Below the pieces are notes generated by a model. It ran no database searches. It had not been told where the DNA came from and saw only the letters and a program-made list of their open reading frames with translations. From contig CBEVQO010000006.1 of assembly GCA_965552055.1 (NCBI GenBank), positions 32,001 to 96,000 of the forward strand: 64,000 nt of DNA, written 5' to 3'. The stretch comes from an uncultured bacterium (GTDB lineage: Bacteria; Hydrothermota; UBA3073; NMUJ01; CBEVQO01). A program made the translations under genes and the position numbers. Shown here in pieces: positions 8,256-46,708 of the stretch (positions are counted from its first letter, which is position 1; every line of letters starts with the position of its first letter).

Positions 8256-8282
8256 AATTTAATCTTTATATAGCAATGTCAA
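8256..8282 (-). promoter_or_regulatory. Sigma70-like promoter for the yggS operon, probably leaderless
   Basis: TTGACA-N15-TAAATT-N5-GTG start. Confidence 0.65.
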
Positions 8283-8293
8283 CCATTTTTGAA

Positions 8294-8320
8294 TTGACAA
8301 AGTAATATTTTAATTAAATT
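8294..8320 (+). promoter_or_regulatory. Sigma70-like promoter for the aminotransferase
   Basis: TTGACA-N15-TAAATT, then a leader with a G-rich SD. Confidence 0.6.
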
Positions 8321-8340
8321 GTGGGAAAATAGGGGGGAGG

Positions 8341-9750
8341 ATGATAAAATATCAATCGCCAGAAATTCCTGAAGAAGTCAGGAAAATTATCGAAAGAGAC
8401 AGGAAAGTGATGTACGGTGCTCACACGAAGACACCTGAAATTCCTCTTGTTGTAAAGCGCGCAAAAGGATGCTGGATTGAAGATATTACAGGGAAAAAAT
8501 ATTTGGATTTATGTGCTAATTTCTGTGTTGCATCCACTGGTCACTGTCATCCTGCTGTTGTGCGCGCGATACAGGAACAGGCAGAGGAAGTATTACATGT
8601 AGGGGCTTGCGATTTTTATCATGAAGCACAGATAAAACTCGCTGAAAAATTGGTGGAGATTACTCCGGGAAATGAACCCAAAAAAGTTTTTTATCCCAAT
8701 ACAGGGGCAGAATGCCTTGAAGCTACAATGAAAATGGCAAAATATTATACGAAAAGACCGAAAGTTATCTCATTTTTTGGTGCTTTTCATGGAAGAACCT
8801 ATGCAGGTATGACACTGAGTGGAAGTAAAAAGGTGCAGAGAGCAGGTTTCGGACCACTTATTCCAGAAGTTTATCACACTCTTTACCCTTATTGCTATAG
8901 ATGCCCCCTTGATAAAAAATATCCAGAATGTAAAGAGGGAGAACCCGAGCGCTATGGCGTCAAAATGTTACCTTGTGTTAGATTTTTGACAGACGAAATT
9001 TTCGAAAGATTGGTAGACCCTTATGAAGTAGCAGCAATTTTCGTAGAGCCGATACAGGGTGAAGGAGGATACATAGTGCCTCCTCCTGAATTTTTAAAAC
9101 TGTTAAGAGGAATTTGCGATGAATTTGGAATAATTCTCATTGCCGATGAAATACAGTGCGGTTTGGGTAGAACAGGCAAATGGTGGGCAGTAGAGCATTT
9201 TGGTATTGTTCCTGATGCTATCTGTATTGCGAAAGGTATTGCTTCGGGCATACCCATGGCAGCAGTAATAGCAAAGGCAAAATTTATGGACCCATCGGTT
9301 GATAAAAATGCATGGGCTTATGCATCACATGGTAACACTTTTGGAGGAAATCCAGTTGCATGCGCAGCAGCACTCGTTACAATAGAACTTATTGAAAAAG
9401 AATTCATGAAAAATGCAAAAGAAGTTGGAGATTTTATTATATCAGAGCTAAAAAAGATGCAGGAAAATCATAGAATAATCGGAGATGTTAGAGGATTGGG
9501 ACTTATGATAGGGTTTGAGCTGGTTAAGGATAAAGAAACAAAAGAACCTTTCCCACCGCAAGTGACAAAAGATGGCAAAAACATAAAAGAAGTGTTCATG
9601 GGAATGGCATTCAAGAGAGGGCTTATAATGGAAGGATGTGGTAAAAGCGCGATGAGAATATCACCGCCATTGAGCATCACAAAAGAGGAAGCACAAAAGG
9701 CACTCGAAATAATTGAAGATATAATTACAGAAATCGAAAAAGAAATTTAA
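8341..9750 (+). CDS. Class III PLP-dependent aminotransferase (GabT/acetylornithine-like)
   Basis: AFHGRT, EPIQGEGG, LIADEIQCGLGRTG, AKGIASG, HGNTFGGNP. Confidence 0.92.
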   Translation: MIKYQSPEIPEEVRKIIERDRKVMYGAHTKTPEIPLVVKRAKGCWIEDITGKKYLDLCANFCVASTGHCHPAVVRAIQEQAEEVLHVGACDFYHEAQIKLAEKLVEITPGNEPKKVFYPNTGAECLEATMKMAKYYTKRPKVISFFGAFHGRTYAGMTLSGSKKVQRAGFGPLIPEVYHTLYPYCYRCPLDKKYPECKEGEPERYGVKMLPCVRFLTDEIFERLVDPYEVAAIFVEPIQGEGGYIVPPPEFLKLLRGICDEFGIILIADEIQCGLGRTGKWWAVEHFGIVPDAICIAKGIASGIPMAAVIAKAKFMDPSVDKNAWAYASHGNTFGGNPVACAAALVTIELIEKEFMKNAKEVGDFIISELKKMQENHRIIGDVRGLGLMIGFELVKDKETKEPFPPQVTKDGKNIKEVFMGMAFKRGLIMEGCGKSAMRISPPLSITKEEAQKALEIIEDIITEIEKEI

Positions 9751-9751
9751 A

Positions 9752-10111
9752 TTGAAAATAGGAATAGACATTGTAAAAGTGTCTCGTATCCGACAGCTTT
9801 TAGAAAAATATGGAGATAAATTTTTAAAAAGGGTATATACGGAAAAAGAAATAGAACAATGCAGTAAAAAGGGGTATTTTATTGAATCGCTTGCCGGGCG
9901 TTTTGCAGCAAAAGAAGCAGTACTTAAAGCACTTGGCACAGGCAAAGCAATTGGTATCAGATGGCGCGATGTGGAAATTCTGGATACAGGACATAAACCA
10001 CCAGAAGTAAACCTTTATGGAATACCAAGAGAAAAATTAGGGGAGAGGCATATAGAGATAAGTATTTCACACGAAAGAGAATTTGCAATAGCTGTTTGTA
10101 TAATTTTTTAA
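9752..10111 (+). CDS. acpS: Holo-ACP synthase
   Basis: IGIDIV, LAGRFAAKEAVLKALGTG, ISISHE. Confidence 0.93.
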   Translation: MKIGIDIVKVSRIRQLLEKYGDKFLKRVYTEKEIEQCSKKGYFIESLAGRFAAKEAVLKALGTGKAIGIRWRDVEILDTGHKPPEVNLYGIPREKLGERHIEISISHEREFAIAVCIIF

Positions 10112-10971
10112 ATAGAAAAATTATCAGATTTTTTAAAAACAAGTGAGTTTAAAGGTAAATTAGTTTCATCAGCTACTGGCTGGCATTTCACTTTAAATAA
10201 AAAGAAAACAGGTGCTTTAACTTCAGAAAGAGCCTCGAAATTTCCTTGCCCTTTACTTATTATCAATTGTGATGAGAAAAATAATTCTTTAAAGGAATCA
10301 GAGCAATATTCCAGCAGAATACCCGGTGCATCGCATCCTGAGTTTATGATTTCACAAACTTCATTTAAGCCGGATTTCACAGCATCATCATAGGTAGCAT
10401 CATTCAAGACAGGCACCCCTTTCACAACATATAAAACCTTTTTATCAAGACGATTTAATTCTTCAATCAAAACCCTATCAAAAACAGTCTCACCGGCATT
10501 ATCTCCGAGATAAAGTATTACTTTAACATTGTTTAAGCATTTCTTAAACTCCTCATAATCAAATACTTTAAATTCACAATTTAAAGTTTCTTCAACATCT
10601 TTGAGGGGGTCGAATTCTTCACCTCTTCCGAAATCAATGACATTCCCCGCTACTGCTATTTTTATAGCACATGATAAAGGATCTGAGGATTTTTCCACAT
10701 CCTTTTTTAGTTCACAATATAATTTTTTGGCAATTTCAATGTGTTTTTCTTTATCTTTTTTATAAGGGTCATAAACTTTTGTATATTTTTTCGGTAAATT
10801 ATGTACAATTCTACCTGCGTGTGTAGGGGTTGGTAAACTCATGAGAGTGGGGAGTAAATTTGCTACATCCATCAAAACTTTTCGTTGTATTTCAAGGGAA
10901 TTCGTTGCTTTCTTTGTGGTTGTCAATGCCTGTCGAAATAAACAGGGAACACAATCAATCTTCAACTTCAT
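10108..10971 (-). CDS. Damage-control phosphatase, DUF89/ARMT1-like
   Basis: DCVPC, AGNVIDFG, GDNAGETVFD, LNDAT, SKGQGNFE. Confidence 0.9.
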   Translation of the reverse strand: MKLKIDCVPCLFRQALTTTKKATNSLEIQRKVLMDVANLLPTLMSLPTPTHAGRIVHNLPKKYTKVYDPYKKDKEKHIEIAKKLYCELKKDVEKSSDPLSCAIKIAVAGNVIDFGRGEEFDPLKDVEETLNCEFKVFDYEEFKKCLNNVKVILYLGDNAGETVFDRVLIEELNRLDKKVLYVVKGVPVLNDATYDDAVKSGLNEVCEIINSGCDAPGILLEYCSDSFKELFFSSQLIISKGQGNFEALSEVKAPVFFLFKVKCQPVADETNLPLNSLVFKKSDNFSI

Positions 10972-11785
10972 AGCCAGCGAATTTTAAAAATTCCTCAACA
11001 TCTTCGTATCGCACTTTAAATTTACCTATTTGAGGATATTTTGGTACATCTCCATGACTATCCGAGCCCCCTGTCATTAACAGGTTATATTTCTTGCATA
11101 ATCCCTTCAAAAATTCAACATCTTTATCATCATGAAAGGGATGCCACACTTCAAGACCCTGTACTTTCGCATTAATCACTTCATAAATCAAATTTTTATT
11201 ATCAAGTTTACAGGGATGAGCAAGCACAGGTATACCACCTGCGTCTTTTATCGCTCTCACAATGTCTTTAGGTTCTGGGACAATCTTGGGAACAAAACAC
11301 GGTCTATCTTCACCCAGATAAAGTTTGAAAGCTTCGAGACGCTCTTTTACAACACCAAGTTCAACAAGTGTCTCTGCAATATGAGGACGGCCAAGTACAT
11401 GTGGCTTTGCATATTTTAAAACATCCTCAAATTTTATTTTGACACCATGTTCGTTTAGTTTTTCAATTATTTTCTTCGCTCTTTCGATTCTACTTTTTCT
11501 TATCTCACAAAGTAAATCATTAATGGCAGAATCATGGTAATTTATGTTATATCCTAAAATATGGATGCTTTGTCTATTAATACTTGCAGATACTTCGACA
11601 GCAGGTATTACTTTAATTCCCAGATTTTTTCCAGCTTTGAGTGCTTCATCTATACCATCGATTGAATCGTGGTCAGCGATTGCAGCAACCACAATGCCAT
11701 GTTCTTTCGCACGAAGAAGTGACTGGGTGGGAGAAAGGGTGCCATCAGAAAAGGTTGTATGAATATGTAAATCAACCCATTTCAT
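10955..11785 (-). CDS. PHP domain metallophosphoesterase (TrpH/YciV-like)
   Basis: DLHIHTTFSDG, ADHD, GRPHIA, LAHP, TGGSDSHG. Confidence 0.9.
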   Translation of the reverse strand: MKWVDLHIHTTFSDGTLSPTQSLLRAKEHGIVVAAIADHDSIDGIDEALKAGKNLGIKVIPAVEVSASINRQSIHILGYNINYHDSAINDLLCEIRKSRIERAKKIIEKLNEHGVKIKFEDVLKYAKPHVLGRPHIAETLVELGVVKERLEAFKLYLGEDRPCFVPKIVPEPKDIVRAIKDAGGIPVLAHPCKLDNKNLIYEVINAKVQGLEVWHPFHDDKDVEFLKGLCKKYNLLMTGGSDSHGDVPKYPQIGKFKVRYEDVEEFLKFAGYEVED

Positions 11786-12269
11786 TTAGTTTCTCCTTCA
11801 TTTTTTTCCGAACAATTTCCGGAACAAAACTCGAGATGTCTCCACCGAGGCGCGCAAGTTCACGCACTAAACTTGAACTTAAAAAAGAATATTTCTCACA
11901 GGGCATAAAAAATATCACTTCAAAATCAGGAAACATCCTTCTATTTGCCATAGCCATTTGAAATTCAAATTCAAAATCCGAAACAGCTCTCAAGCCCCTT
12001 ATTACCGTATTTAAACCATGAGAACGCAGATAATCTACAAGCAAGCCCTGTAATACATCGACTTCAACCCTTTTTTCTTCTTTAAAAATTTCTTTAACAA
12101 TTTCTACCCTTTCTTGAAGCGAGAAAAATGGATTTTTTTCTTTTCTTTCAGCAACTAAAATGATGACTTTATCAAAAATTTTTAAAGCCCTTTTAACGAC
12201 ATCTACATGACCGTTGGTTATGGGGTCAAAAGTCCCGGGATATACCGCTATTTTAGCGCTCAATCCCAT
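11772..12269 (-). CDS. coaD: Phosphopantetheine adenylyltransferase
   Basis: YPGTFDPITNGH, IRGLRAVSDFEFE, SSSLVRE. Confidence 0.96.
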   Translation of the reverse strand: MGLSAKIAVYPGTFDPITNGHVDVVKRALKIFDKVIILVAERKEKNPFFSLQERVEIVKEIFKEEKRVEVDVLQGLLVDYLRSHGLNTVIRGLRAVSDFEFEFQMAMANRRMFPDFEVIFFMPCEKYSFLSSSLVRELARLGGDISSFVPEIVRKKMKEKLNEMG

Positions 12270-12492
12270 ATCTTTCCCTTAATATCAATCTTAAATAGGA
12301 AAGAGAGGTCTTTAATCTCCTTATTTCACTGGTTAATAAAATTCTGGAAGCATCGAGGATGATGATTTCCCTTTTCCAGTGATTTATTTCGGAATGCAAT
12401 TTCAAAAGCCTTATTAAGCCATATTTACTGAATACAAGAAAATAAATCGCCAGAAGCAAGAATATAAGATTAAATAATTTTCTTCCTTTCAT
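12253..12492 (-). CDS. Septum formation initiator (FtsB/DivIC-like)
   Basis: Single TM, FSKYGL motif, coiled coil, C-terminal RERYG. Start moved to ATG 12492, downstream of the promoter. Confidence 0.6.
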   Translation of the reverse strand: MKGRKLFNLIFLLLAIYFLVFSKYGLIRLLKLHSEINHWKREIIILDASRILLTSEIRRLKTSLSYLRLILRERYGIER

Positions 12493-12499
12493 AGCACTT

Positions 12500-12526
12500 A
12501 ATCTAATCAAAATTTCAAAAAGTCAA
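12500..12526 (-). promoter_or_regulatory. Promoter for the ftsB-like/coaD operon
   Basis: TTGACT-N15-TAGATT-N7-ATG. Confidence 0.55.
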
Positions 12527-12535
12527 GATATTTTG

Positions 12536-12562
12536 TTGACAAAATATTTATTCGATTATAAT
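12536..12562 (+). promoter_or_regulatory. Promoter for the TPR operon, probably leaderless
   Basis: Perfect TTGACA-N15-TATAAT-N5-ATG. Confidence 0.7.
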
Positions 12563-12567
12563 AAAGG

Positions 12568-13116
12568 ATGGCGAGGAAAGTTCCAAAAACAGATATTTTT
12601 ATTCAGAATGTGCAGAGATTTTTCTATAAATTAACGAAATACAGAAATTATGTGTTTATTGGAATTGCTGGGCTAATTGTAATATGTGCGGTTGCGGGTT
12701 ACATAAAGAAAACGAATTTTGAGAAAGAGCTCGTGGCTAAGAGGCTATTTTACAATGCACTTTCTGACTACACTGCTGGAAATATTCAAAGGGCTTTGGA
12801 ATCTTTCAAAGAAATTACAAAGAGTTATGGAGGGACAAGGGTTGGTGCAAGGGCTCTTTATTATCTTGCGAACTGTTACTATTATCTCGGGAAATTTGAA
12901 GAAGCCAGAGAATCATTTGAAAAAGTATTGAAAAAGACGAAAGATGAAATTTTTTGTCAGGGTGCGTTACTCGGCATAGCAGATTGTTATCTTCAGGAAG
13001 GCAAAATTTTAGAAGCAAAAGAATACTATGAGAAAGTCAAAAAGAGGTTCCCGGGCACACCTGTAGCGGAGCTCGCAAAAAGGCGACTCTCCCTCATTTC
13101 TACCAATGTCCAATAA
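12568..13116 (+). CDS. Membrane-anchored TPR protein (YfgM-like)
   Basis: N-terminal TM followed by TPR repeats. Confidence 0.7.
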   Translation: MARKVPKTDIFIQNVQRFFYKLTKYRNYVFIGIAGLIVICAVAGYIKKTNFEKELVAKRLFYNALSDYTAGNIQRALESFKEITKSYGGTRVGARALYYLANCYYYLGKFEEARESFEKVLKKTKDEIFCQGALLGIADCYLQEGKILEAKEYYEKVKKRFPGTPVAELAKRRLSLISTNVQ

Positions 13117-14371
13117 GGTCTCTTATGTAAACTTACTTATTATATTGGGTGGGTGTTTCAGGCTCGCCGATGTAAAGGCTTATTTCAACACAATGTATAT
13201 GGCTCGAGAATATTATAAAAAAGGCGATTACAAAAAATGCATCGAAAATTGCGAAAGAATAATAAAATATCATTCAAAATCTAAATATGTGCCCGAAGCT
13301 ATCTATCTCATAGCAAAATCATCCTTCCACCTCAAAAAATATAGAGAAGCCGAAAAAAAATATTTCGAATTTTTATCTCTATACCCCGATCATCCTCTCA
13401 AATTAAAAGTGCTCATCGGTTTAAGCGAGGTGAAAATCGAAAAAGGCGAATTCGATGACGCAATCTATTACATACAGAAAGCACTCAAAGAAGCTAAAGG
13501 ATACACAAAGAAACTAATCTATATAAGACTGCTTAATCTTCATTTCAAATTGAAGAATTATGAAGAAGTACTTAATCTTGGGAAATCTTACTTAACCTGC
13601 AAAAAGAACCCTTTTAGATTAGAGATAATGCTACTGATGGCTAAGGCAGCGGATTCTCTGCAAAATTTCGAACTCGCATTGAACTATAAAAAGAGAATTT
13701 ATAAGAAACAAAAATCCGATTCACTTCTTTTCAGTATCGCAACAGATTTGCAAAACCTAGGAGAAAATGAAAAGGCGATTAAATACTTCAAAAAACTTTT
13801 AAAATCTTTAAAGGATAAAAAACTTCTACCAAAAATCCATTATCGTATGGCAATCAGCTACAATGCAATGGGTTTAACGGATAGCGCTATACATCACCTT
13901 GAAATAAGTAAAATACCCGAAGCTTACTTCTTGCTCGGAAAAATATACGAACAGAATAAAAAATTCGAAGAAGCCTGTAAATACTATCAGAAAGTCCCAA
14001 AAAATACTAAATTCAGTAAAGAAGCGATATTGAGATTTTCGAGACTTAAAAGATATCTGGAATACCGTAAAGATACACTTATAACGGCAAAATCTACTTT
14101 TATACTGGGAGAAATATTCTGGATGGAATTTAATCAACTCGATAGTGCTATTTATTATTACTCAAAGGTATTAAATGAGTTTCCCGAATCAGAATACGCT
14201 CCAAAGGCTTTATTCTGTATCGCATGGATTTATGAAAAATACAAAGCAGATACCGCAAAAGCACTAGAAAGTTATACAAAACTATGTGAAATGTTTCCGC
14301 AAACAGATTACGCAAAAGCAGCAAGATGCGCAATCGAGAGATTGGAAAAAAATGAGAATAATATCAAATGA
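13106..14371 (+). CDS. TPR repeat protein, probable lipoprotein
   Basis: LIILGGC lipobox-like motif, AYFNT motif, many TPRs. Confidence 0.75.
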   Translation: MSNKVSYVNLLIILGGCFRLADVKAYFNTMYMAREYYKKGDYKKCIENCERIIKYHSKSKYVPEAIYLIAKSSFHLKKYREAEKKYFEFLSLYPDHPLKLKVLIGLSEVKIEKGEFDDAIYYIQKALKEAKGYTKKLIYIRLLNLHFKLKNYEEVLNLGKSYLTCKKNPFRLEIMLLMAKAADSLQNFELALNYKKRIYKKQKSDSLLFSIATDLQNLGENEKAIKYFKKLLKSLKDKKLLPKIHYRMAISYNAMGLTDSAIHHLEISKIPEAYFLLGKIYEQNKKFEEACKYYQKVPKNTKFSKEAILRFSRLKRYLEYRKDTLITAKSTFILGEIFWMEFNQLDSAIYYYSKVLNEFPESEYAPKALFCIAWIYEKYKADTAKALESYTKLCEMFPQTDYAKAARCAIERLEKNENNIK

Positions 14372-15071
14372 AAATATAGGAAAAAATATTTATTTGATGA
14401 GATTAGAAGGTTTAAAAGGAGAAGTTTATCCCTTCCAGTTCTTCATGTTCAAAATAAGAGAAGAAGATACACCCCTCTTGCGAAGACCTTTCAGTGTTCA
14501 CAATGCTTATCTTCATTACTTAGAAATACTTTACAAGGTAAGAGGAAAGGGAACAGAGTTACTTTCGCGAAAAAAACAGGGTGATTATTTAGATGTTGTG
14601 GGACCTCTTGGTAAGCCTTTTCTCCCTTCTCCCGGCAACTATACGCTTATAGCTGGCGGAATGGGTATAGCACCTCTGCTTTTTCTCGCAAAATTTATAA
14701 AAGGAGAAATAAAATTTTTAGTGGGATGCAAATCGTATGAACTTTATCCTGTTATTGAAAAATGCAAAGATTATGGAAAGGTATTTGTATGCACGGAGGA
14801 TGGTTCTCTTGGAGAAAGAGGTATAATAACTGACTTTTTAGAAGAAATAAGCAAAAAATCAAAAGTAATAGCATGTGGACCAATTGAGATGTTGAAAAAA
14901 ATTAAGAAATATTGTGAAGAAAGAAAAATAAAATGTTATCTTTCCCTTGAAAGAAGGATGGGTTGCGGGATAGGTGCATGTAAAGGTTGCGCAGTAAAAG
15001 CAGAAAAGGGAGGTTATTATTATGTGTGCAAAGATGGACCAGTGTTTGAATCTACCACAATCAGAATTTAA
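14352..15071 (+). CDS. pyrK: Dihydroorotate dehydrogenase electron transfer subunit
   Basis: LRRPFS, GPLG, AGGMGIAP, ERRMGCGIGACKGC...CKDGPVF; no pyrD adjacent. Confidence 0.88.
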   Translation: MRIISNENIGKNIYLMRLEGLKGEVYPFQFFMFKIREEDTPLLRRPFSVHNAYLHYLEILYKVRGKGTELLSRKKQGDYLDVVGPLGKPFLPSPGNYTLIAGGMGIAPLLFLAKFIKGEIKFLVGCKSYELYPVIEKCKDYGKVFVCTEDGSLGERGIITDFLEEISKKSKVIACGPIEMLKKIKKYCEERKIKCYLSLERRMGCGIGACKGCAVKAEKGGYYYVCKDGPVFESTTIRI

Positions 15072-16122
15072 AGAAAGACAGGAAAAACTGAGAAAAATGA
15101 TGAAAAAAATAGATGCACTTATAATCATGAACCCGATAAATGTTTATTATCTAACGGGATTCGAAGGAGCAGGATATCTCTTAATAACGCCAACACAAAC
15201 CCTTCTTTACACAGGCTTTATAGATAAGGAACCAGCAAAAAATGCAGTTTGCGACGATGTTATAATATTGAAAGGAAAATTGAATATCGGAATGATAAAA
15301 ACTGCTCCCTTTAAACATCTTAAAAATATAGGTATAGAATCTTCAATTTCGTATGCGGAATTTATGCATTTGCAGAAACTATTGAAGAAAAAGAGAAAAA
15401 GATTAATACCTGTAACAGGAAAAGTTGAGACATTGCGATTAACAAAATCAGAAGAAGAAATAAAATTAATAAAAAAAGCTGCAGAAATATCGGATGAAGT
15501 TTTTGGGGAAATACAAAAGATGATAAAACCCGGAATCACAGAAAGAGAGATTGCAATTGAGATAGATTATCAATTAAAAAAGAAAGGTGCCAGAAGAGCG
15601 TCTTTTGAAGTCATAGTAGCTGCAGGTGAGAATGGAGCTCTCCCCCATGCCATTTCAGGCGATTATAAAATAAAAGAAGGAGATATGATAACGATTGATA
15701 TGGGAGCACAATACAAAGGATATTGCTCTGACATGACAAGAACATTTGCGGTTGGAGAGCCTTCTCAAGAGATGAAAAAAATTTATAAAATCGTAAAAGA
15801 AGCTCAGGAGAGAGCAATCGAAGCAGTTAAACCCGGTATAAAGGTGCGTGAACTCGATAAAATAGCGAGGGATTTTATAAAGAAAGAGGGATTCGGGAAA
15901 TATTTTGGTCATTCGTTGGGACACGGTATAGGTCTTCAGGTGCACGAAGCTCCGAGAGTATCATGGCTTGGCAAAGGAGAACTTAAAGAAAATATGGTGA
16001 TTACAATAGAACCAGGGATTTACATTCCGGGAAAGGGCGGGGTAAGAATAGAAGATATGGTGGTTGTAAGAAAAGAAGGTCCAGAAATTTTAACTAAATC
16101 CGAGAAAATCGAAATCCTTTAA
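15022..16122 (+). CDS. Xaa-Pro peptidase (M24B); true start probably slightly downstream
   Basis: HSLGHGIGLQVHE, TIEPGIY, GVRIED. Confidence 0.93.
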   Translation: MCAKMDQCLNLPQSEFKERQEKLRKMMKKIDALIIMNPINVYYLTGFEGAGYLLITPTQTLLYTGFIDKEPAKNAVCDDVIILKGKLNIGMIKTAPFKHLKNIGIESSISYAEFMHLQKLLKKKRKRLIPVTGKVETLRLTKSEEEIKLIKKAAEISDEVFGEIQKMIKPGITEREIAIEIDYQLKKKGARRASFEVIVAAGENGALPHAISGDYKIKEGDMITIDMGAQYKGYCSDMTRTFAVGEPSQEMKKIYKIVKEAQERAIEAVKPGIKVRELDKIARDFIKKEGFGKYFGHSLGHGIGLQVHEAPRVSWLGKGELKENMVITIEPGIYIPGKGGVRIEDMVVVRKEGPEILTKSEKIEIL

Positions 16123-17760: not shown

Positions 17761-18290
17761 CTCATACTATATTTGCATCCACAATACCTTTGCCTGTATA
17801 ATGAAAATTTTTTACTTAACTCAACGGATTTTTTAAATCCATCTTCTTTTTTAAAGTCATAAGATAAAAAAGAAAGGGAATATTCTTTTGCAATCCTCTC
17901 CCCCACTTCAAAAATCACTTTAGCATTTTTATGGGGACTTATCGTTAAAGTAGTTGTAAATTTTTTAATACCCAGTTCTTTACATTTTTCCGCTGTTTTT
18001 CGCAACCTTATTTCAAAACATATTTTGCATCTTTTGCCTCCTTCAGGCTCTTTTTCATATCCCCTTATCTTATTATCCCATTCCTCGTTATCCCATTCTC
18101 CCACAATTAGTTCAAAATCCATTATCTTTGAAAGTTTTAAAGCATTTTCTAACCTTCTATCATATTCTTCTTTTGGAAAAATATTTGGGTTATAGAAGAA
18201 AAATATAGGTTCAAATCCTTCTTTTCTCATTTTTTCACAAACCCATGTAGCACAGGGTGCACAGCACATATGAACTAAAACTTTATCCAT
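17757..18290 (-). CDS. queH: Epoxyqueuosine reductase QueH
   Basis: HMCCAPC, YNPNI, RCKICFEIRL, YRQRYCGC. Confidence 0.9.
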   Translation of the reverse strand: MDKVLVHMCCAPCATWVCEKMRKEGFEPIFFFYNPNIFPKEEYDRRLENALKLSKIMDFELIVGEWDNEEWDNKIRGYEKEPEGGKRCKICFEIRLRKTAEKCKELGIKKFTTTLTISPHKNAKVIFEVGERIAKEYSLSFLSYDFKKEDGFKKSVELSKKFSLYRQRYCGCKYSMR

Positions 18291-18652: not shown

Positions 18653-19617
18653 GAGCTTAAAGCTTTTCCCCTTAAATCTCCCGATTCTATAAGTGCAAGA
18701 CCGGGACATCTATTACAATAAGGTCTTAACTCACATTTTAAGCAATCTTTTAAATCTTCTGCTCTTATGTTTCTTAACATATTTAATTCTTTAGAGTTTT
18801 CCCAGATTTCTTCGATTTCAGTATCTCTTATATTTCCACAAATTAGAGGCATTTGTATACAGGGTTTTATTTCACCGAAGGGTGTTATTGTGAGCGTGGT
18901 GATACCTGCACCGCATAATAAGTTTTCATTGTCTTCAAATTTATTACTGCATCTTCTTAAAATTTCTTCATTCTGTTGCGCTAACTTTATTATAGCCTTT
19001 TGCGATGCTCTGTATTGTAAAGGTGAGTTATCACCATTATCTTTTGGGGTTATAAGTGCATCAACCTGATAATTTATCTTCAAATCCTTTGCAAATAAAA
19101 TTAAGTTTTCAATCTCATCTATGTTATATTTTGTAATTATGATTTTAAGTGTGATATTAAAATTATTTTCTTTCAACAATTTTATCGCTTCCATTGTTCT
19201 ACGGTGTGAGCCCTTTACACCAGTTATTTTTTCATGGGTTTTTTCTTTAAAACCGTAAATGCTGATTCCAATTTCCACTGGATGAATTTCTTTTAATTTT
19301 TCAACGATTTTTTCATCTATCAATGTTCCGTTTGTTATCACATAAATTGCCATTTTTTCTTCTCTTAATTTTCGTGCAATTTCGAAAAAATCTGTATAAA
19401 GTAAAGGTTCACCTCCAGTTAAAGTAACACTTAAAGTGCCTAATTTTCGCAATTTTTCTATTAATTTAAACCATTCTTCTAATGTCAATTTTTTACCTTT
19501 TCTCCTTACAACATAACAATGTTTACAATGAAGGTTGCAATCATAAGTTAATTCAAAAGTTGCTTTCACCGGAATTTTATTCCTGTAGGCAATCTTATAA
19601 AGTTCGTTTATAATCAT
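18613..19617 (-). CDS. Radical SAM protein with SPASM domain (PqqE-like maturase family)
   Basis: CNLHCKHC, TGGEP; SPASM cysteines CGAG...PC...CLKC...C..C...C. Confidence 0.9.
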   Translation of the reverse strand: MIINELYKIAYRNKIPVKATFELTYDCNLHCKHCYVVRRKGKKLTLEEWFKLIEKLRKLGTLSVTLTGGEPLLYTDFFEIARKLREEKMAIYVITNGTLIDEKIVEKLKEIHPVEIGISIYGFKEKTHEKITGVKGSHRRTMEAIKLLKENNFNITLKIIITKYNIDEIENLILFAKDLKINYQVDALITPKDNGDNSPLQYRASQKAIIKLAQQNEEILRRCSNKFEDNENLLCGAGITTLTITPFGEIKPCIQMPLICGNIRDTEIEEIWENSKELNMLRNIRAEDLKDCLKCELRPYCNRCPGLALIESGDLRGKALSSCWMAEISKKLQS

Positions 19618-19622: not shown

Positions 19623-19649
19623 ATAATAATCGAGTTATAATTTTGGCAA
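19623..19649 (-). promoter_or_regulatory. Promoter for the radical SAM operon, probably leaderless
   Basis: TTGCCA-N15-TATTAT-N5-ATG. Confidence 0.55.
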
Positions 19650-19702
19650 CATTTTAATTGACAAATTTGTAAGATAAATAAAAAATAATAACAGGAGGGG
19701 AA

Positions 19703-23206: not shown

Positions 23207-23261
23207 ATATGATAGAAAAACTTTACTTGACAAATCAGGATTTTTATTATTAATATTGGCT

Positions 23262-36460: not shown

Positions 36461-36484
36461 TTTTTAATTTTAAAAATTGATGAA

Positions 36485-39808: not shown

Positions 39809-40380
39809 TATAACTCCATTATTTTTCGATAAACTTCCTCTGCTAAAATTTTCCTCATTTTTGCATCTGTCTTTGAAGGTATCGTAATTTCCTTTCCGAA
39901 TGCCAATCTATATCTTATTCCATTTTTTTCGATTTTCACGGGTAGAATTTTTGCACCTGTTTTTGAAGCAAGATAAATTGCCCCGGGTTTCGGTGTTACT
40001 TTCTCACCCGGTTTTACCATTTTGCCTTCGATAAAAATAAGAAGGTTTCCTTTTTTCAGAATCTCAATTAACTTACGCATAAGCGAAGGCTCTGGTTTAT
40101 CACGGTCTATAAAAATAGCACCAGCTCTCTGTGCAAAATAAAGAAAGGGTTTCCTCAAATCTTTAACAAGACCTTTAACCGCAAAGAAATAGAGCTTCTT
40201 CGGAAAAACAGTACACCCTATTAAAATTGGGTCAAGATGGGTTATGTGATTCGAGACAAATAGCAAATTTTTATTTCGTTCAGGAATGTTCTCTAAACCT
40301 TTAATTTTTAAAAAGAAAAGACGATAAACGCGATAAAGAATATAAATTATTGCAAGCATAAACTGGAAAGTGAGCTCCAT
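39808..40380 (-). CDS. plsC: Lysophospholipid acyltransferase (PlsC-like)
   Basis: NHITHLDP (HxxxxD), FIDR, FIEG. Confidence 0.8.
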   Translation of the reverse strand: MELTFQFMLAIIYILYRVYRLFFLKIKGLENIPERNKNLLFVSNHITHLDPILIGCTVFPKKLYFFAVKGLVKDLRKPFLYFAQRAGAIFIDRDKPEPSLMRKLIEILKKGNLLIFIEGKMVKPGEKVTPKPGAIYLASKTGAKILPVKIEKNGIRYRLAFGKEITIPSKTDAKMRKILAEEVYRKIMEL

Positions 40381-40381
40381 T

Positions 40382-41332
40382 TCAGGATTTGTCTTCTTTG
40401 AATAAATCTAAAAATCTATCTTCGTATTTTTTAAATAAATTCCATTTGTCTAATTCTTTTTTCAAAATGTATGCTTTGCTTCTATCTTTTTTTGCTTCTT
40501 CAAATAATTTTTCAATTTTTTCAAGTACAGATTTTGGAACATCTTCTTCAGAATAAGTTTCAATTTCTTTTTCCACTGGTGGAATTGCCTCTGATGGTTC
40601 CGGCTTTTTTATAAATTGAGTGAACTTTTCTTTTAATGATTTGAGTTCTTTTTCTAATGATTCAATTTGCATATCAAGTTCATATGTATCAATTGTTATT
40701 CCTATTATTTTGCTCATTGTAAGCACAACTGCTTTTGATGCTTTGGGATTTGGTATTTCGATAGCAAATTGGGGCATGGTGGCAAGAAAACAGGCAGCGT
40801 CTATATCCCAGTCCCTGGCATAGCCTATTATTAAGCCGTTCATACCACGAATGTGTCCTCCCTCCATTATTCTTATCTTATATTTATCATACAATAAATT
40901 TCTTAATTGTTCAGAATTTGCAACAGCATAAACCACCGAGGGATCTTCAAATGTCTGATTTAACTGGGGGAAAGCAGCTCCTGTCATAATCATTCTTACT
41001 TTCATCTCTTTTGCGAATGATAAAATTAAGTTTAAAAAGTTTTCACCATCCTTACTTCGCAATTGAATGTTGCTTTCAAATAATATAATGTCGGGATTTT
41101 TCCTATAATAAAAACTATTCATAGGTGGGGGTGCTTTAAAAGTGACCCCATTTTCTACTTCCACATAATCATGCGTAAAAACATCGCTAATATCAACCTC
41201 TGCAAATTTTTCACAATTCAATTTTCTGCGCAGAAAATCAACAGCTCCAAGAGCAACATTGCCCATACCCGGCCAGCCTGCTATCATTATCGGAGACCTT
41301 ACATCTATTCTTTTTAACACTCTAATATCCAT
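40382..41332 (-). CDS. PAC2 (proteasome assembly chaperone) family protein
   Basis: IAGWPGMGNVA, G.NGL, PNPKAS motifs. Confidence 0.8.
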   Translation of the reverse strand: MDIRVLKRIDVRSPIMIAGWPGMGNVALGAVDFLRRKLNCEKFAEVDISDVFTHDYVEVENGVTFKAPPPMNSFYYRKNPDIILFESNIQLRSKDGENFLNLILSFAKEMKVRMIMTGAAFPQLNQTFEDPSVVYAVANSEQLRNLLYDKYKIRIMEGGHIRGMNGLIIGYARDWDIDAACFLATMPQFAIEIPNPKASKAVVLTMSKIIGITIDTYELDMQIESLEKELKSLKEKFTQFIKKPEPSEAIPPVEKEIETYSEEDVPKSVLEKIEKLFEEAKKDRSKAYILKKELDKWNLFKKYEDRFLDLFKEDKS

Positions 41333-41340
41333 TTCTTTTT

Positions 41341-41367
41341 AATTTAATCGAATATCTCAATTGTCAA
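41341..41367 (-). promoter_or_regulatory. Promoter for PAC2-plsC-dnaE
   Basis: TTGACA-N15-TAAATT-N8-ATG; overlaps the stop codon of the upstream permease. Confidence 0.6.
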
Positions 41368-42311
41368 TCAAATTTTTTATTTTTCCGTAAGAGATAGATA
41401 AAAAATGGAACACCAAATAAAGATGTAACAACACTTATCGGAAATTCTATAGTCCATATCCTTGAGAGAGTATCTGAAATTAACAGTAGAGAAGGTCCTA
41501 TTAACAAAACACTTTTTAAAACTTTTTTATAATCCGCACCGATACAGAGGCGCGCTAAATGAGGAACACAAAGACCAACAAAACCAATCGCACCACATAA
41601 CATAACAGTCAATGCTGTTAAAATACCCGATAATATAAAAATTTTGAAACGCAACTTATTAACATCCACTCCGCACGATAAAGCTTCATATTCACCCAGC
41701 GATAATAAATTTAATGCTTGAGAATATTTGATAAACAAAAAAATGCAAATAAGTAAAAAGAAGTAGGAAAAAGTTAAAGAAATATAAAATAACTTATCGG
41801 GAATGACCGATAGCCTCCCCATAAGAAAATAAATTATCTGGGATAAACTTTCGCCATGTAAAACCATTAAAATCATAGTTAAACTGCTGACAAATGTGCT
41901 AACTATTACTCCCGACAGAATCAAAGTGTGCGGCAAAGCAACTCCTCTTATGCTTCCTAACCTGTAAATTATAAAAATAGAAATAACAGCAAATAATAAG
42001 GAAAAAGGTTGGTAAAAATTTAAGAATAATTTCCCAAAGATAGCACCCAGACATGCACTACCGGCTACACCAAGGATGTAAGGGTCACATAGGGGATTGC
42101 GCAAAATGCCCTGCAATACAGCACCTGATAATGATAAAGAAATGCCACAAAAAATTCCCAAAATTAATCTCAATACCCTTAACTTCAATATCAAAGTATT
42201 TGATAAGAAGCTAGCAGGTCCTGTGAAGATTTCAAGAAGAATTGAAAAAATTAAAAATAGTATTAATACAATGATTTTAAGATATGTGCCAGTTTTTCTT
42301 GAGTTTGCCAT
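41364..42311 (-). CDS. FecCD/BtuC-family ABC permease
   Basis: LQGILRNPL.DPYILG, LGE.EA...GV, GAIGFVGL.VPH. Confidence 0.9.
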   Translation of the reverse strand: MANSRKTGTYLKIIVLILFLIFSILLEIFTGPASFLSNTLILKLRVLRLILGIFCGISLSLSGAVLQGILRNPLCDPYILGVAGSACLGAIFGKLFLNFYQPFSLLFAVISIFIIYRLGSIRGVALPHTLILSGVIVSTFVSSLTMILMVLHGESLSQIIYFLMGRLSVIPDKLFYISLTFSYFFLLICIFLFIKYSQALNLLSLGEYEALSCGVDVNKLRFKIFILSGILTALTVMLCGAIGFVGLCVPHLARLCIGADYKKVLKSVLLIGPSLLLISDTLSRIWTIEFPISVVTSLFGVPFFIYLLRKNKKFD

Positions 42312-43459
42312 TGCCCGTATAATACTCCCTGACCTGCCAACCTACCGAGAGCACTTTTTGTTTCATTATCAATAGGGTTCAATTTAGCATTTTGGAAAGG
42401 TGTCCCCGGAAGTGGCATAAAAGTATGTGCATGAATACGCGCACCCATTCCCGAGAGCTCCTCCATAACCCTCACGGTTTTTCGTCTATCTGCTTGAGTC
42501 TCCCCCGGTAATCCAAACATAAAATCAACATGCGGGGTAAAACCTGCCTTTAAAGCATTTTGCACCGCAGTATAAACATCAGAAACCGTGTGACCCCTCC
42601 CTATCTTTTCAAGCAAACTATCACTGCCTGTCTGTGCACCTATTATCAGATATTGATTATCTACAAATTCTTTTAATAATAAAGCAATGTCCTCTGTCAA
42701 AAAATCAGGACGAACTTCTGAAGGAAAATTGCCAAAAAATATTCTGCCCCTTCTTTTAACCACATCTCTCACCGATTTTAGAAATTCATATAGCATGTTG
42801 TAATCTGCTTTAAATCCATCTGTGCCATACGATAGGGCATTTGGTGTGATAAATCTTATATCCGTTATTCCTACAGCGAGTAAATCGCAAACCAGATCAC
42901 AAATTTTTTCTATACTTCTATGTCGCACATCCCTACCAAAGAGATAAGTTGTCTGACAAAATTTACAACCCCATGGACAGCCCCTTGTTATTTCAATTGC
43001 TCCGTATTTCCCGTATTTCTTCACAAAAGGATAAAAATCATCGAGATTTTGAACTTTTTCGCCCTGTATTATTTTCTCCTTTATTTCTTCTCCTTTTTTC
43101 AGTTTTTCGATTAATTTCGGAAAAGAGATTTCTCCTTCACCTTTTATAATGTAATCGAAGCCTCTCCTCAAAGTATTTTCAGGTAATGCACTTGCATGAG
43201 GACCACCTCCTATTATGATTAGTTTATCACCATAAGTATTTTTCAAATCTTTTACAATTTTAAAAATTTCTTTTGCCTGTGTTGAGAAAAAAGATATTGC
43301 CAAAATTATTTTTTTGTGTTTCTTAAAAAGTTTCGCCAGTTCCCATTGCAAATTTTTTGTTATAAATTTAATTTCATAATCGGGATTTTTTTGCAGAAGC
43401 GAAGCCGTAATCGCCCTCAATCCATTTCTATTCGGTTTTGGATAATATATGCAAAGCAC
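42263..43459 (-). CDS. B12-binding domain radical SAM protein
   Basis: GGPH, GEGE, EITRGCPWGCKFC, PSEVRP, H.FMPLPGTP. Confidence 0.88.
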   Translation of the reverse strand: MLCIYYPKPNRNGLRAITASLLQKNPDYEIKFITKNLQWELAKLFKKHKKIILAISFFSTQAKEIFKIVKDLKNTYGDKLIIIGGGPHASALPENTLRRGFDYIIKGEGEISFPKLIEKLKKGEEIKEKIIQGEKVQNLDDFYPFVKKYGKYGAIEITRGCPWGCKFCQTTYLFGRDVRHRSIEKICDLVCDLLAVGITDIRFITPNALSYGTDGFKADYNMLYEFLKSVRDVVKRRGRIFFGNFPSEVRPDFLTEDIALLLKEFVDNQYLIIGAQTGSDSLLEKIGRGHTVSDVYTAVQNALKAGFTPHVDFMFGLPGETQADRRKTVRVMEELSGMGARIHAHTFMPLPGTPFQNAKLNPIDNETKSALGRLAGQGVLYGQWQTQEKLAHILKSLY

Positions 43460-43464
43460 AATAA

Positions 43465-43491
43465 ATGATAATTATAATTTTAAGATGTCAA
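43465..43491 (-). promoter_or_regulatory. Promoter for the B12 radical SAM, probably leaderless
   Basis: TTGACA-N15-TATCAT-N5-GTG. Confidence 0.62.
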
Positions 43492-43503
43492 CTTATAATT
43501 TTT

Positions 43504-43600
43504 AGCCCCGCCTCCCAGTCCCCGCCGCCCTCGTGCACACCCCTCCTTTCAGTCGGGGTGTTGACTCACAACCCATATGTAATGCACTCGCTCCGCTCGT
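43504..43600. other. GC-rich non-coding element containing an IS200/IS605-end-like hairpin
   Basis: Stem ACACCCC (43537-43543) / GGGGTGT (43555-43561) followed by TTGAC; markedly GC-rich against AT-rich flanks. Confidence 0.4.
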
Positions 43601-43629
43601 AATAAAAAATTTAATAGAGTTATTAAAAA

Positions 43630-45096
43630 TTATTCGCATCTACCACCGAGATGTTTCGCAAGAAATCTTTCCACAGCTTCATAAAATTTTAATCTATTTT
43701 CCTGAATCAAAAGTCCATGTCCTTCGTTTTCGAAAAGCAAATATTCCACTTCTTTGCCTCTTTCTCTGAGTGCTTTAACGATTTGTTCGCTCTCCTCTCT
43801 CTTTACCCTTGGGTCATTTGCCCCCTGTCCTATGAGTAATGGTATTTTAATTCTATCTACATGGAAATAGGGAGACCTTGACTTTAAAAATTCTGCTTCT
43901 TTATCGGGGTCACCCACCCTTTTCCTTTCTATTGCCCAGTAAGTTTTCCAGTAAGGAGGGATTGATTTCAGATGCGTAATAAGGTTACTGGGTCCACATA
44001 AAGAGATTGCACATTTGAAAAGGTCAGGTGTGAATGTGGCTCCACAAAGTGCAGCATATCCACCGTATGAAAAGCCCTTGATTGCTATCCTTTCGGGGTC
44101 TGCGTAGCCATTTTCAATGCACCATTTAACTGCATCAACAAGGTCATCATGCATCTTGCCACCCCATTCCCTATCACCTGCGTTCAGAAACTCTTTACCA
44201 AATCCCATTGAGCCACGAAAATTAACCTGCAAACATAAATAACCCCTATTTGCGAGCCATTGCACCACAGGGTCAAATGCCCAAAAGTCCCTATCCCAGG
44301 GACCACCATGCACCTCGAGTACCATAGGCAGATTTTTTCTCGGTAAACCTTTGGGGAATGTGAGATAGCATAACATTCTGTAGCCATCCCTTGTTCGTAT
44401 AAATACCGGCATTTTATTGGAAAAGGTATATTTTTTAAGTTCGGGCTGGGTTGAAAATAAAAATTCCAATTTCTTATTATCCCTTTGATAAAGATAAAAT
44501 TCCCATGGTGTATCATCTTTACTAAATGCTATGACCCATATGTTATTATCACTGCTCTGGCTGGTTATCACATAATCGCCTTTCAATTTGTCGTTTAAAA
44601 ATTCGATGTCTTCCTTTACTTCATCTGAAACTGCTATCAATTAGCTTTTTCTTTATAAATGCAAACAGCAAGTAGCTCATCGGTATAAGGATGGAATAAC
44701 GCCAAACTCCGCATTGGCAAACAATCATATGAGTATTTCATCAGGTCGCGAAGGATGGGCACGAAGTATGCTCGCCTAGACACCCTCAAAAGGTGTGAGG
44801 TCTTTTATCTCGCCTGTTAAAGTGTCTATCCTGTATATGTGCCAGTTTTCGTCACCATCGTAATCTTTCATGTATATTATGTGTCTGCTGTTTTCAGCCC
44901 AATCGTAATTGATTATGCTTCTTTCTTTCTCAAAGGTTAACTGTCTTTCGCCTTTTTCATCTTTCAGCCATATGTTAAGCACATCGTCAGTTCGCTTTAG
45001 ATATGACATTTTCCTGCCGTCGGGTGAAACCCCGGGATATGTTATTTCCTCTAGCCCTATGAGCACCTCGCGGGGTATCAGCTCGGGCAATGCCAT
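43630..45096 (-). pseudogene. S9 family peptidase (dipeptidyl/acylaminoacyl peptidase) pseudogene
   Basis: The N-terminal fragment (LIPRE..SPDG..GDEN) stops at TAG 44778-44776, followed by an in-frame TGA, frameshifts and a large internal deletion. The C-terminal catalytic domain is intact (HGGP, GFSYGG, GANDPRV, NEGH). Confidence 0.85.
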
Positions 45097-45164
45097 TTCC
45101 CCTCCTTTTTGTTATCTTGTAATCTAAACTTAGATTTGTCAATTAAAATTTTGGTTAAACTGAC

Positions 45165-45191
45165 TTGACAAATTTTTATTTTGGATAATAT
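45165..45191 (+). promoter_or_regulatory. Promoter for the tmRNA-tRNA transcript
   Basis: TTGACA-N15-TAATAT, 15 nt upstream of the tmRNA 5' end. Confidence 0.6.
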
Positions 45192-45206
45192 ATAAGGGAG
45201 CTCTTT

Positions 45207-45521
45207 GGGGGCGAAAAGGATTCGACGGGGGTGACCGCAGCAGGAGGAGCACGCCGGGAGGGGTCCCGTAAACCCTTAAATAAGTGCGGAGTATGCCTGG
45301 GCTGCATAAGGGCTAGCCCCTGAACCGACGCCCATAGGTTCAGGGGGACGGGTATGGGCTCTTCTGCTACCCTTGACCCCGGGGTGGCAGAGAAATCCAG
45401 GGGTCTGGCTCTGCACTACCGTGCCCCATCCGGGGTGCAGGGCGAGATTAAAGATGGGGCTAAGCGTGTAGTGCCCCTGTTGTGGCACTCTCGGACGTGG
45501 GTTCGATTCCCACCGCCTCCA
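45207..45521 (+). ncRNA. ssrA: tmRNA
   Basis: 5' GGGGGCGAAAAGGATTCGAC; 3' GTGGGTTCGATTCCCACCGCCTCCA; acceptor stem with G3-U70; tag ORF 45286-45309. Confidence 0.95.
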
Positions 45522-45522
45522 T

Positions 45523-45594
45523 GCCCCCGTAGCTCAATGGTAGAGCGACGGGCTGTTAACCCGGAGGTTGCAGGTTCGAATCCTGCCGGGGGCG
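45523..45594 (+). tRNA. tRNA-Asn(GTT)
   Basis: Acceptor GCCCCCG/CGGGGGC, anticodon loop CT-GTT-AA, T arm GCAGG-TTCGAAT-CCTGC; CCA not encoded. Confidence 0.95.
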
Positions 45595-45595
45595 T

Positions 45596-45668
45596 GCCCC
45601 TGTAGCTCAATTGGAAGAGCGTCGGACTTCGGATCCGATTGCTGTGGGTTCGAGTCCCACCAGGGGTG
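45596..45668 (+). tRNA. tRNA-Arg(TCG)
   Basis: Acceptor GCCCCTG/CAGGGGT, anticodon arm TCGGA-CT-TCG-GA-TCCGA, T arm GTGGG-TTCGAGT-CCCAC; CCA not encoded. Confidence 0.93.
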
Positions 45669-45706
45669 CATACTTTTCATTTTTCCCTTTCTTAATAATC
45701 TTTCAA

Positions 45707-45734
45707 TTGACAACTTCAAAAAATAAATTATAAT
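45707..45734 (+). promoter_or_regulatory. Promoter for the patatin gene, probably leaderless
   Basis: TTGACA-N16-TATAAT-N5-ATG (45740). Confidence 0.65.
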
Positions 45735-45739
45735 TGTCA

Positions 45740-46708
45740 ATGCAATTTTGTAAGAAAATAGGAATAGCACTTGGTGCAGGTGCTGCTCGTGGTTTAGCTC
45801 ATATAGGTGTGCTTCAGGCTATCGAAGAGGAAGGCATAAAAATTGATTTTGTAGCAGGCACAAGCATGGGTGCAATTGTTGGTGCTTATTTTGCGAAAAA
45901 TGGCACAGTAAAAGGACTTAAGGAACTTGCGTTGCTGATGGACAGGCTAAATCTTATACGATTAGCCGACCCCAATATCCTTCTTATGTTCAAGGGATTC
46001 ATTTCAGGAAAACGGGTTGAAGATTTTTTAAAAATAATTGTGGGTGATATTTATTTTGAAGATTTACAAATTCCTTTCGCGGTAGTAGCTACTGACTTAT
46101 ATACAGGAAAAGAAGTGGTGATAAAAGAAGGCAGGGTTATTTCAGCAATTAGAGCAAGTATTTCTATTCCTGCAATTTTTGTCCCTGTAAAATGGGAAGA
46201 AACTTTTTTAGTAGATGGTGCCCTTTCTAATCCCGTTCCCGTAGATATTGTACGCAAAATGGGTGCAGATATTGTGATAGCAAGTAATGTTATCCCTGCA
46301 CCTTCTCACGATAAAGCATTAAAATCTTCGGATATAAAAACAAAAGAAATCAAAAGTAATGCAAATTCCGAAAAGATGCAAAGAGAAATAAAGAATCTAG
46401 TCCAAAAAGATACAACGAAATTTAATTTACTGGAAAATCTTATAAAAAAGATAAAAGAAAGCAAAGCACTGGAAAAATTAAAAGAAGAGATGCAAGTTCC
46501 TAATATTTTTGAAGTATTAATCCGAAGCCTAGAAATAATGGAATATGAAATTGCAAAATTATGTGCTGAAAAAGCAGATATTGTTATTACACCCGATTTA
46601 GAAGGAATAAGTGCACTTGATTTTAAAAATGCTGGCGAAATAATTAAAAGGGGATACGAAAAAGCAAAATTTCTGTTGACAATATTAAAAAGAAATTATA
46701 ATAAATGA
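45740..46708 (+). CDS. Patatin-like phospholipase (RssA-like)
   Basis: GAGAARGLAHIG, GTSMG, DGA. Confidence 0.92.
   Translation: MQFCKKIGIALGAGAARGLAHIGVLQAIEEEGIKIDFVAGTSMGAIVGAYFAKNGTVKGLKELALLMDRLNLIRLADPNILLMFKGFISGKRVEDFLKIIVGDIYFEDLQIPFAVVATDLYTGKEVVIKEGRVISAIRASISIPAIFVPVKWEETFLVDGALSNPVPVDIVRKMGADIVIASNVIPAPSHDKALKSSDIKTKEIKSNANSEKMQREIKNLVQKDTTKFNLLENLIKKIKESKALEKLKEEMQVPNIFEVLIRSLEIMEYEIAKLCAEKADIVITPDLEGISALDFKNAGEIIKRGYEKAKFLLTILKRNYNK
46676..46702 (+). promoter_or_regulatory. Promoter for xerC, embedded in the patatin 3' end, probably leaderless
   Basis: Perfect TTGACA-N15-TATAAT-N5-ATG (46708). Confidence 0.68.

Follow-up and report, generated by a model that had tools for sequence, protein, structure and literature searches.

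A 15-bp promoter spacer in an order of uncultured bacteria, with a short sigma factor as its candidate reader

A spacer of 17 +/- 1 bp between the -35 and -10 hexamers is treated as a near-universal constraint on promoters, set by the placement of sigma regions 2 and 4 on RNA polymerase. Promoters of 49 species with mapped transcription start sites (TSSs) are reported to have mostly 17-bp spacers under an E. coli-trained model (PMC12641261), and a 15-bp spacer is called unfavourable for sigma-70 in a review (PMC10911233). Bacteroidota promoters are described as being of a -33/-7 type (PMC7366714), and a preprint quotes the Flavobacterium consensus as TTG-N17-23-TANNTTTG and gives the -7 consensus of Chlorobaculum RpoD as TA[ATC][ATC][AT]T (bioRxiv 10.1101/172254); the sigma-ABfr elements are -33 TTTG and -7 TAnnTTTG. 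No relevant report of a 15-bp housekeeping spacer, or of WOR-3 promoters, was found in open-access text. Here we consider a 64,000-nucleotide stretch from an uncultured bacterium (assembly GCA_965552055.1, contig CBEVQO010000006.1, positions 32,001 to 96,000; hereafter the window), for which a preliminary description had noted a recurrent TTGACA-N15-TAnnnT arrangement, Nx being the count of nucleotides between the two hexamers, and had attributed it to a shortened spacer preference of the lineage's primary sigma factor or RNA polymerase. We are highly confident that the 15-bp promoter geometry is secure in the genome under study (G000; 2.23 Mb in 15 contigs, 97% complete), and we weigh below which sigma factor reads it.

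The genome-wide spacer histogram has its mode at 15 rather than 17, which bears out the central observation of the preliminary description. TAnnnT follows the 1818 occurrences of TTGACA at N14 in 45 cases, N15 in 416, N16 in 93, N17 in 106 and N18 in 48, and when the -10 is restricted to TATAAT the corresponding counts are 7, 121, 27, 7 and 4. Matches to TTGAC[AT]-N15-TAnnnT number 443 outside coding cores against 44 inside, by crude gene calls. In an unconditioned matrix of the 803 non-core TTGACA hexamers, the three -10 positions that matter most in the N15 register carry T at 0.73, A at 0.71 and T at 0.61, and the best spacer per hexamer is 15 at 335 of them, 16 at 54, 17 at 25 and none at 313. 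Among 362 divergent gene heads, scored with the spacer left free by a matrix whose training on N15 sites favours N15-like flanks, the best spacer is 15 at 243, 16 at 29, 17 at 3, another length at 15 and none at 72, many of the last of which look like false open reading frames; at the 250 internal control starts, N15 was its choice 8 times. The TTGACA-TAnnnT counts and the unconditioned matrix are independent of that training.

N15 enrichment is seen with TTGACA and weakly with TTGACT, and with none of TTGACC, TTGACG, TTGCCA and TTGAAA. The -10 hexamers among the 443 sites include TAAAAT (141), TATAAT (131) and TAAATT (44), and the overall consensus (an A-rich tract, cTTGACA, an A/T-rich spacer with a GAT end, and TAWAAT) describes a single homogeneous class. 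The possibility of two promoter classes, one per sigma, was rejected, as the TAnnAT and TAnnTT subsets share one profile and N17 is chosen at so few gene heads. These promoters thus have the TTGACA and TAnnnT/TATAAT hexamers of canonical sigma-70/sigma-A promoters and lack the 17 +/- 1 bp spacer.

The genes served are those expected of a housekeeping system. An N15 site precedes the 16S rRNA gene, and one lies within 75 nt of 21 of the 47 tRNA and transfer-messenger RNA (tmRNA) genes (20 tRNAs and the tmRNA), whereas 1 gene has an N17 site only and 1 an N14 site; many of the remaining 24 have another tRNA or gene ahead of them. At 236 of the 443 N15 sites an in-frame start codon falls 5-7 nt past the -10 (24 and 26 at control offsets), and in-frame ATGs, taken as a proxy for the TSS, are found at gaps of 5, 6 and 7 nt at 85, 45 and 22 of 386 sites. 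This spacing fixes the N15 register, would place the TTG at about -32 to -33 and predicts widespread leaderless mRNA, which about half of the N15 promoters would appear to yield. The start codon is most often 5 nt past the -10 in G000, and the mode is 6 nt in G001, a genome of the sister family f2. Many G000 tRNAs start just 6-9 nt past the -10 box, so that precursor 5' leaders would be about 0-3 nt. The N15 sites lie ahead of most transcription units in G000 and in f2 and are likely housekeeping promoters.

The phylum is likely WOR-3, since homologues of the short sigma factor discussed below carry the names WOR-3 and TA06 32_111, the latter matching region 2-3 of phylum member G007. We searched 151 genomes of the phylum for TTGACA-Nx-TANAAT at three spacings, and 272 genomes for TTGACA-N15-TANHWT with its looser -10. 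With the stricter pattern G000 has 261, 49 and 21 matches at N15, N16 and N17, and no other of the 151 genomes has more than 17 at N15. With the looser pattern the four genomes of the order that includes G000 have 387, 83, 78 and 55 matches (14, 6, 9 and 5 in reversed-pattern controls), the next-highest count among the 272 genomes being 50 with a control of 29; N15 density is about 59-174 per Mb in the four order genomes and does not exceed 21 per Mb in any of the remaining 268. Among these 272 phylum genomes, N15 enrichment is confined to this order.

The order forms a clade in an RpoB/RpoC tree (support 0.949), and the three f2 genomes represent one genus, so that the order amounts to two independent families. 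Of 144 upstream regions in a 400-kb portion of G001 (some 29% of its genome), 26 have a -10 near the ATG, and alignment on the -10 with no -35 assumed places a TTG at the N15 position (0.81, 0.62, 0.54; n=26) ahead of TAnnTT. The same 400 kb holds 39, 18 and 7 matches to TTGAC.-Nx-TAnnTT at N15, N16 and N17.

Spacer length is labile within this one phylum. Families with a 16-bp mode include those of G132, G066 and G003 (2/285/35, 4/260/30 and 6/58/24 at N15/16/17), and families with a 17-bp mode those of G065 and G068 (2/7/258 and 2/8/59). A mode of 16 is also seen across f17, f24, f27, f9, f13, f14, f15, f23, f31, f34 and others, and one of 17 across f4, f8, f12, f25, f29 and f20. Family f3 was considered as a second 15-bp lineage on a hint from G008 (11 of 36 at N15) and rejected, as 340 kb of G045 disagreed (13, 23 and 20 at N15, N16 and N17). 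In f22, f28, f30 and f37 there are few TTGACA-TAnnnT matches at any spacing tried, and the promoter consensus of these families may differ.

Searches of the three f2 genomes (99, 87 and 66% complete) with the protein, region 2, region 4 and region 1.1 recovered only a short sigma and an extracytoplasmic function (ECF) sigma, and by the same searches no long RpoD was found in any of the three. The gene directly after dnaG, which is rpoD in G000, G040 and G045, is unrelated in both f2 genomes in which dnaG is assembled. Because no group 1/2-type sigma other than the short one was found in f2, the short sigma almost certainly reads the N15 promoters of that family. Moreover, since the sister family has 15-bp spacing without long RpoD, the likely reader in G000 too would be the short sigma rather than RpoD. 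The pattern suggests that a short sigma has taken the place of RpoD for a second time, independently of Bacteroidota.

G000 encodes a long RpoD (575 aa), a short sigma (265 aa), a FliA-like sigma and ECF-like sigmas. The short sigma retains WW-RQ and RERVRQ, the residues with which it would contact the -10 and -35, shares first place for conservation within the class (21 of 84), and has a ratio of non-synonymous to synonymous substitution (dN/dS) of 0.011 relative to the sister-species copy L268, with 105 synonymous and 11 non-synonymous differences; by this comparison of gene sequences it is under strong purifying selection. An N15 promoter heads its operon. It comprises regions 1.2-4 and lacks both the non-conserved region and region 1.1, PF03979 being absent from its Pfam list, and it is about 41% identical to Bacteroidota RpoD/SigA proteins. 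In a quick sigma tree a branch with support 100 sets the long RpoDs apart, and the short sigmas of WOR-3 (92) and of Bacteroidota (91) are separate groups, the FliA root being unreliable. The G000 short sigma starts two residues before region 1.2 and so has no basic N-terminal segment, a feature of the Bacteroidota-type short primary sigma.

The short sigma gene sits in a conserved operon between genes for an HtrA-like protease and a likely M23 peptidase (L038, L105, L130), the gene names being judged by the look of the sequences and not by a family scan; these neighbours recall the nlpD-rpoS pairing. The distance from the WW to the RER motif is 148 residues in the G000 short sigma, 149 in that of f2 and typically 151-152. 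The G000 protein is thereby 3 residues short of the typical length between regions 2.4 and 4.2. Sigma linker length was rejected as the cause of the short spacer, as distances of 148-150 occur likewise in f3, f5, f6, f7 and f15 and paralogues of relatives with 16-17 bp spacers are similarly short.

The long RpoD of G000 presents a different picture. It departs from 27 of 101 conserved columns, including some in regions 2.4 and 3.0, versus 8-15 in 12 class orthologues, and scores 285 bits against TIGR02393, where the cut-off is 354 and three class orthologues score 333-361. Its branch in a quick tree is long (0.88), and among its best 120 matches no relative exceeds 35% identity over the full length (best 35%), with 52% the best among fragments. 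The 260-300 nt ahead of rpoD, dnaG and two genes upstream yielded no promoter for it. The preliminary description had pointed to regions 3-4 of RpoD as a place to look for indels, and these do occur: the region 3 helix has lost one residue and the 3.2 linker has gained two, whereas region 4.2 is normal. Region 1.1 is apparently duplicated in this protein (L008:5373-7100), which contains both PF03979 matches of G000. In f15 and f32 (L135, L136, L138, L140, L226), RpoDs that diverge at 28-40 of 101 conserved columns likewise stand beside well-conserved short sigmas, and these families are possible further sigma handovers.

We lean slightly towards the explanation that RNA polymerase carrying the short, Bacteroidota-like sigma reads the N15 promoters, the short sigma having replaced the long RpoD in the order's ancestor. 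Our confidence is evenly balanced on the fuller scenario, in which the order handed housekeeping transcription to this short paralogue, G000 being in mid-handover with a decaying RpoD and f2 having finished with its loss; parsimony favours a single handover in the order's ancestor. Region 4 of the sigma would bind TTGACA and region 2 would bind and melt TAWAAT, as in other sigma-70 proteins, with the two regions held about 2 bp closer together, which in B-DNA corresponds to about 7 A and 70 degrees of twist. Transcription would then begin about 6 nt past the -10 box, in many cases on the start codon itself. RpoD, once freed, would have been lost in f2 and would be drifting or specialising in G000. 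Of the preliminary description, the shortened spacer preference of the lineage is well supported, with its mode of 15 restricted to the order, and the assignment to the primary sigma, if this means RpoD, gives way to the short sigma as the likelier reader.

Several observations weigh against a handover to the short sigma. The long RpoD of G000 is intact, adjoins dnaG and has a normal -35 recognition helix, and no relative is close enough for a dN/dS estimate, its cluster mate differing by 1 residue. The short sigmas of G000 and f2 are only 48% identical; one tree groups them weakly (0.70), and the quick sigma tree does not resolve their grouping. Most -10 boxes of G000 are TAWAAT, unlike the TAnnTT of f2, and the TT-to-AT ratio of the -10, about 0.25 in G000, is more like that of the RpoD-only families (0.17-0.43) than that of families whose RpoD is degenerate (0.49-1.5), yet exceeds the values of other strong-consensus genomes (0.03-0.08). 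In f9, f14 and f31 (6 genomes searched) the mode is 16 and no short sigma was found, so that long RpoD alone can give 16; f15 combines a degenerate RpoD and a conserved short sigma, yet its mode is 16 (4, 36 and 15 in G047). Across 41 genomes, with G148 omitted for its incomplete RpoD stretch, the two sigmas show no anti-correlation in their conservation (rho 0.18, p 0.27). A phylum-wide rule, by which a short sigma would mean a short spacer and a long RpoD 17 bp, was accordingly rejected. Finally, the residue of G000 RpoD equivalent to what we take to be E458 in E. coli numbering is N, where the strong 16-bp families have D. The RpoDs of those families (L189-L233), which are related to one another, share a region 3.0 motif with A at the position we number V454 and D at E458, a candidate determinant.

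Several of these points feed the strongest alternative, that in G000 the long RpoD, for all its divergence, continues as the housekeeping sigma and evolved its own 15-bp preference through adaptive changes in regions 2.4, 3.0 and 3.2, with f2 reaching the same spacing separately by way of its short sigma. The intact gene after dnaG, the helix deletion and lengthened 3.2 linker, the N at the E458-equivalent, the 16-bp spacing reached by RpoD-only families and the TATAAT-like -10 of G000 all speak for it. E458 of sigma-S is moreover linked to the use of non-optimal spacers in a review (PMC10911233). It requires, however, two independent shifts to 15 bp in sister families when none is seen in the other 268 genomes; the substitutions strike many near-invariant columns, resembling the degenerate-looking RpoDs of f15 and G126, and the rpoD region has no detected promoter of its own over the stretches searched. 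We regard this alternative as possible, though distinctly unlikely.

A change in core RNA polymerase, or in a factor bound to it, could instead have shifted the docking of sigma region 4 in the order's ancestor, after which any primary-type sigma would read 15 bp; one event would then cover both families, whichever sigma works. The beta' zipper, which contacts spacer DNA (PMC3173786), has K in G000 in place of the arginine present in 45 other phylum genomes, and G000 also has a 4-residue insertion in the clamp. The R-to-K change was nevertheless rejected as the cause, being private to G000 while f2 keeps R. A zipper E-to-D change is common to G000, f2 and the strongest 16-bp families, and the changes that G000 and f2 have in common are few, three conservative ones in RpoB and three in RpoC over the aligned stretches, which belong to RpoB outside its N-terminal part and to a lesser part of RpoC. 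In an alignment of 48 RpoB sequences, neither G000 nor f2 has an indel in the flap, where the preliminary description had proposed to look for one. Ahead of flagellin, the one likely FliA promoter has the customary 11-nt gap, judged against what we assume to be the FliA consensus; FliA and sigma-54 spacing was set aside as a test of core geometry, neither motif giving a genome-wide signal. On this evidence we consider a core change improbable. Separately, rpoB and rpoC are not adjacent in the three f2 genomes, rpoC being on a different contig in each (L067, L069, L265-L267).

It is very improbable that the spacing is only apparent, with the real -10 two bases further on at 17 bp or with the motif a transcription-factor site or a by-product of repeats, since, although AT-rich DNA permits shifted readings and there are 102 non-core N17 matches, 62 of these are TATA-overlap readings of N15 sites, the last position of the N17 register shows no T enrichment (0.40 in the unconditioned matrix, n=803), start codons 5 nt past the N15 -10 would lie 3 nt from an N17 -10, too close for initiation, and the N15 sites are oriented, stand ahead of rRNA and tRNA genes and are rare at internal control starts.

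Within the window itself, the nine sites listed in the preliminary description all lie where it placed them and have exactly 15 nt between the hexamers; GAT or AAT precedes the -10 at eight of them, two are perfect TTGACA/TATAAT as described, and the -35 is TTGACA at seven and departs from it at 12526 (TTGACT) and 19649 (TTGCCA). The window alone has 9 matches to TTGAC[AT]-N15-TAnnnT versus 1.97 +/- 1.45 in 200 dinucleotide shuffles (maximum 9), a modest excess that by itself is suggestive. A start codon follows the -10 by 5 nt at five of the nine sites, by 7 nt at one and by 8 nt at one, and another site serves the tmRNA.

Three divergent pairs have their -35 boxes back to back and just 8-11 nt apart, so that the polymerases of each pair would be rivals for one stretch of DNA. 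In the first, the minus-strand site at 8256..8282 (TTGACA/TAAATT) lies 5 nt from the GTG of a YggS-family gene, predicted to be leaderless, and the plus-strand site at 8294..8320 (TTGACA/TAAATT) precedes a gene for an aminotransferase, at 8341, whose ribosome site is of the GGAGG type. In the second, TTGACT/TAGATT at 12500..12526 (minus strand) is 7 nt from an ATG, upstream of coaD, and the perfect TTGACA/TATAAT at 12536..12562 (plus strand) is 5 nt from the ATG of a TPR, YbgF-like gene at 12568. In the third, TTGCCA/TATTAT at 19623..19649 (minus strand) lies 5 nt from the ATG of a radical SAM gene at 19617, and its divergent partner at 19658..19684 (plus strand) has TTGACA followed in the N15 register by TAAAAA. 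This last site, together with that at 23227..23256 (plus strand), had been set apart as an exception, the former for want of a clear -10 and the latter for a spacer of 18 to TAATAT; both descriptions hold, yet 23227 also has TATTAA at N15, so that each has TA in the N15 register and lacks only the final T.

Further sites on the minus strand are TTGACA/TAAATT at 41341..41367, 8 nt from the ATG of a PAC2-family gene at 41332, and TTGACA/TATCAT at 43465..43491, 5 nt from the GTG of a B12 radical SAM gene at 43459. On the plus strand, TTGACA/TAATAT at 45165..45191 is the promoter of the tmRNA gene (45207..45524, plus strand; RF00023, 156 bits), a housekeeping RNA behind an N15 promoter, and the second perfect TTGACA/TATAAT, at 46676..46702, has ATGs 2 and 5 nt downstream, at a XerC-like recombinase gene. 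The remaining exceptions are as described: TTGACA/TATAAT at 45707..45734 (plus strand) is of the minor N16 class, and the site at 52133..52160 (plus strand) is ambiguous between N14 to TATAAT and N16 to TAATAT. An inverted TTGACA directly follows the former, forming an imperfect palindrome across the promoter (45707-45740). One N16 site, TTGACA/TATAAT at 7697..7724 (minus strand) within the yggS-family gene, was missing from the earlier list.

A whole cellular genome that uses 15 bp with unchanged boxes indicates that the promoter ruler can be reset by two bases, and, with relatives at 15, 16 and 17 bp within one phylum, sigma swaps allow a direct test of what determines spacer length. If housekeeping transcription was indeed handed to the short sigma, the phylum would offer a natural 17-16-15 series exposing what sets this ruler, and the short sigma would be nearly orthogonal to E. 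coli promoters through spacing alone. A 15-bp sigma could serve as a basis for orthogonal expression, and 15-bp promoters will escape predictors whose training was on E. coli.

Among known systems, the N15 promoters resemble sigma-70/sigma-A promoters of E. coli and B. subtilis in their TTGACA and TATAAT/TAAAAT boxes, upstream A-rich tract and T-rich spacer end, and in serving rRNA, tRNA and most operon heads. They differ in the spacer of 15 rather than 17, in a G that sits 3 nt before the -10 (GAT) and not 2 nt before it (TGn), and in start codons that peak 5 nt past the -10, about half of the units looking leaderless. The order resembles Bacteroidota in having a short primary-type sigma without region 1.1, in compact geometry with a TTG near -33 and, in f2, in the loss of the long RpoD (compare PMC7366714). 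The TAnnTT of f2 and TAWAAT of G000 fit the Chlorobaculum -7 consensus, and TTG-N18-TA in both falls within the Flavobacterium range of a TTG 17-23 nt before the -7 element (bioRxiv 10.1101/172254). In two genomes of the Bacteroidales, which use the related sigma, the TTG-Nx-TA mode is N19, one base longer than the N18 of G000 (28 of 57 sites in G152, by hand count), so that their sigma-70-equivalent spacer is already 16. Unlike Bacteroidota promoters, those of the order keep the full TTGACA and have no TTTG tail (G000 has no TTG after the hexamer, and f2 has TAnnTT only), and G000 retains a long RpoD, so that its short sigma is not the sole one. The 16-bp housekeeping promoters of other families in the phylum, of which we found no published description, have the same boxes one base further apart, and at least some are read by a long RpoD, as in f9, f14 and f31, where no short sigma was found.

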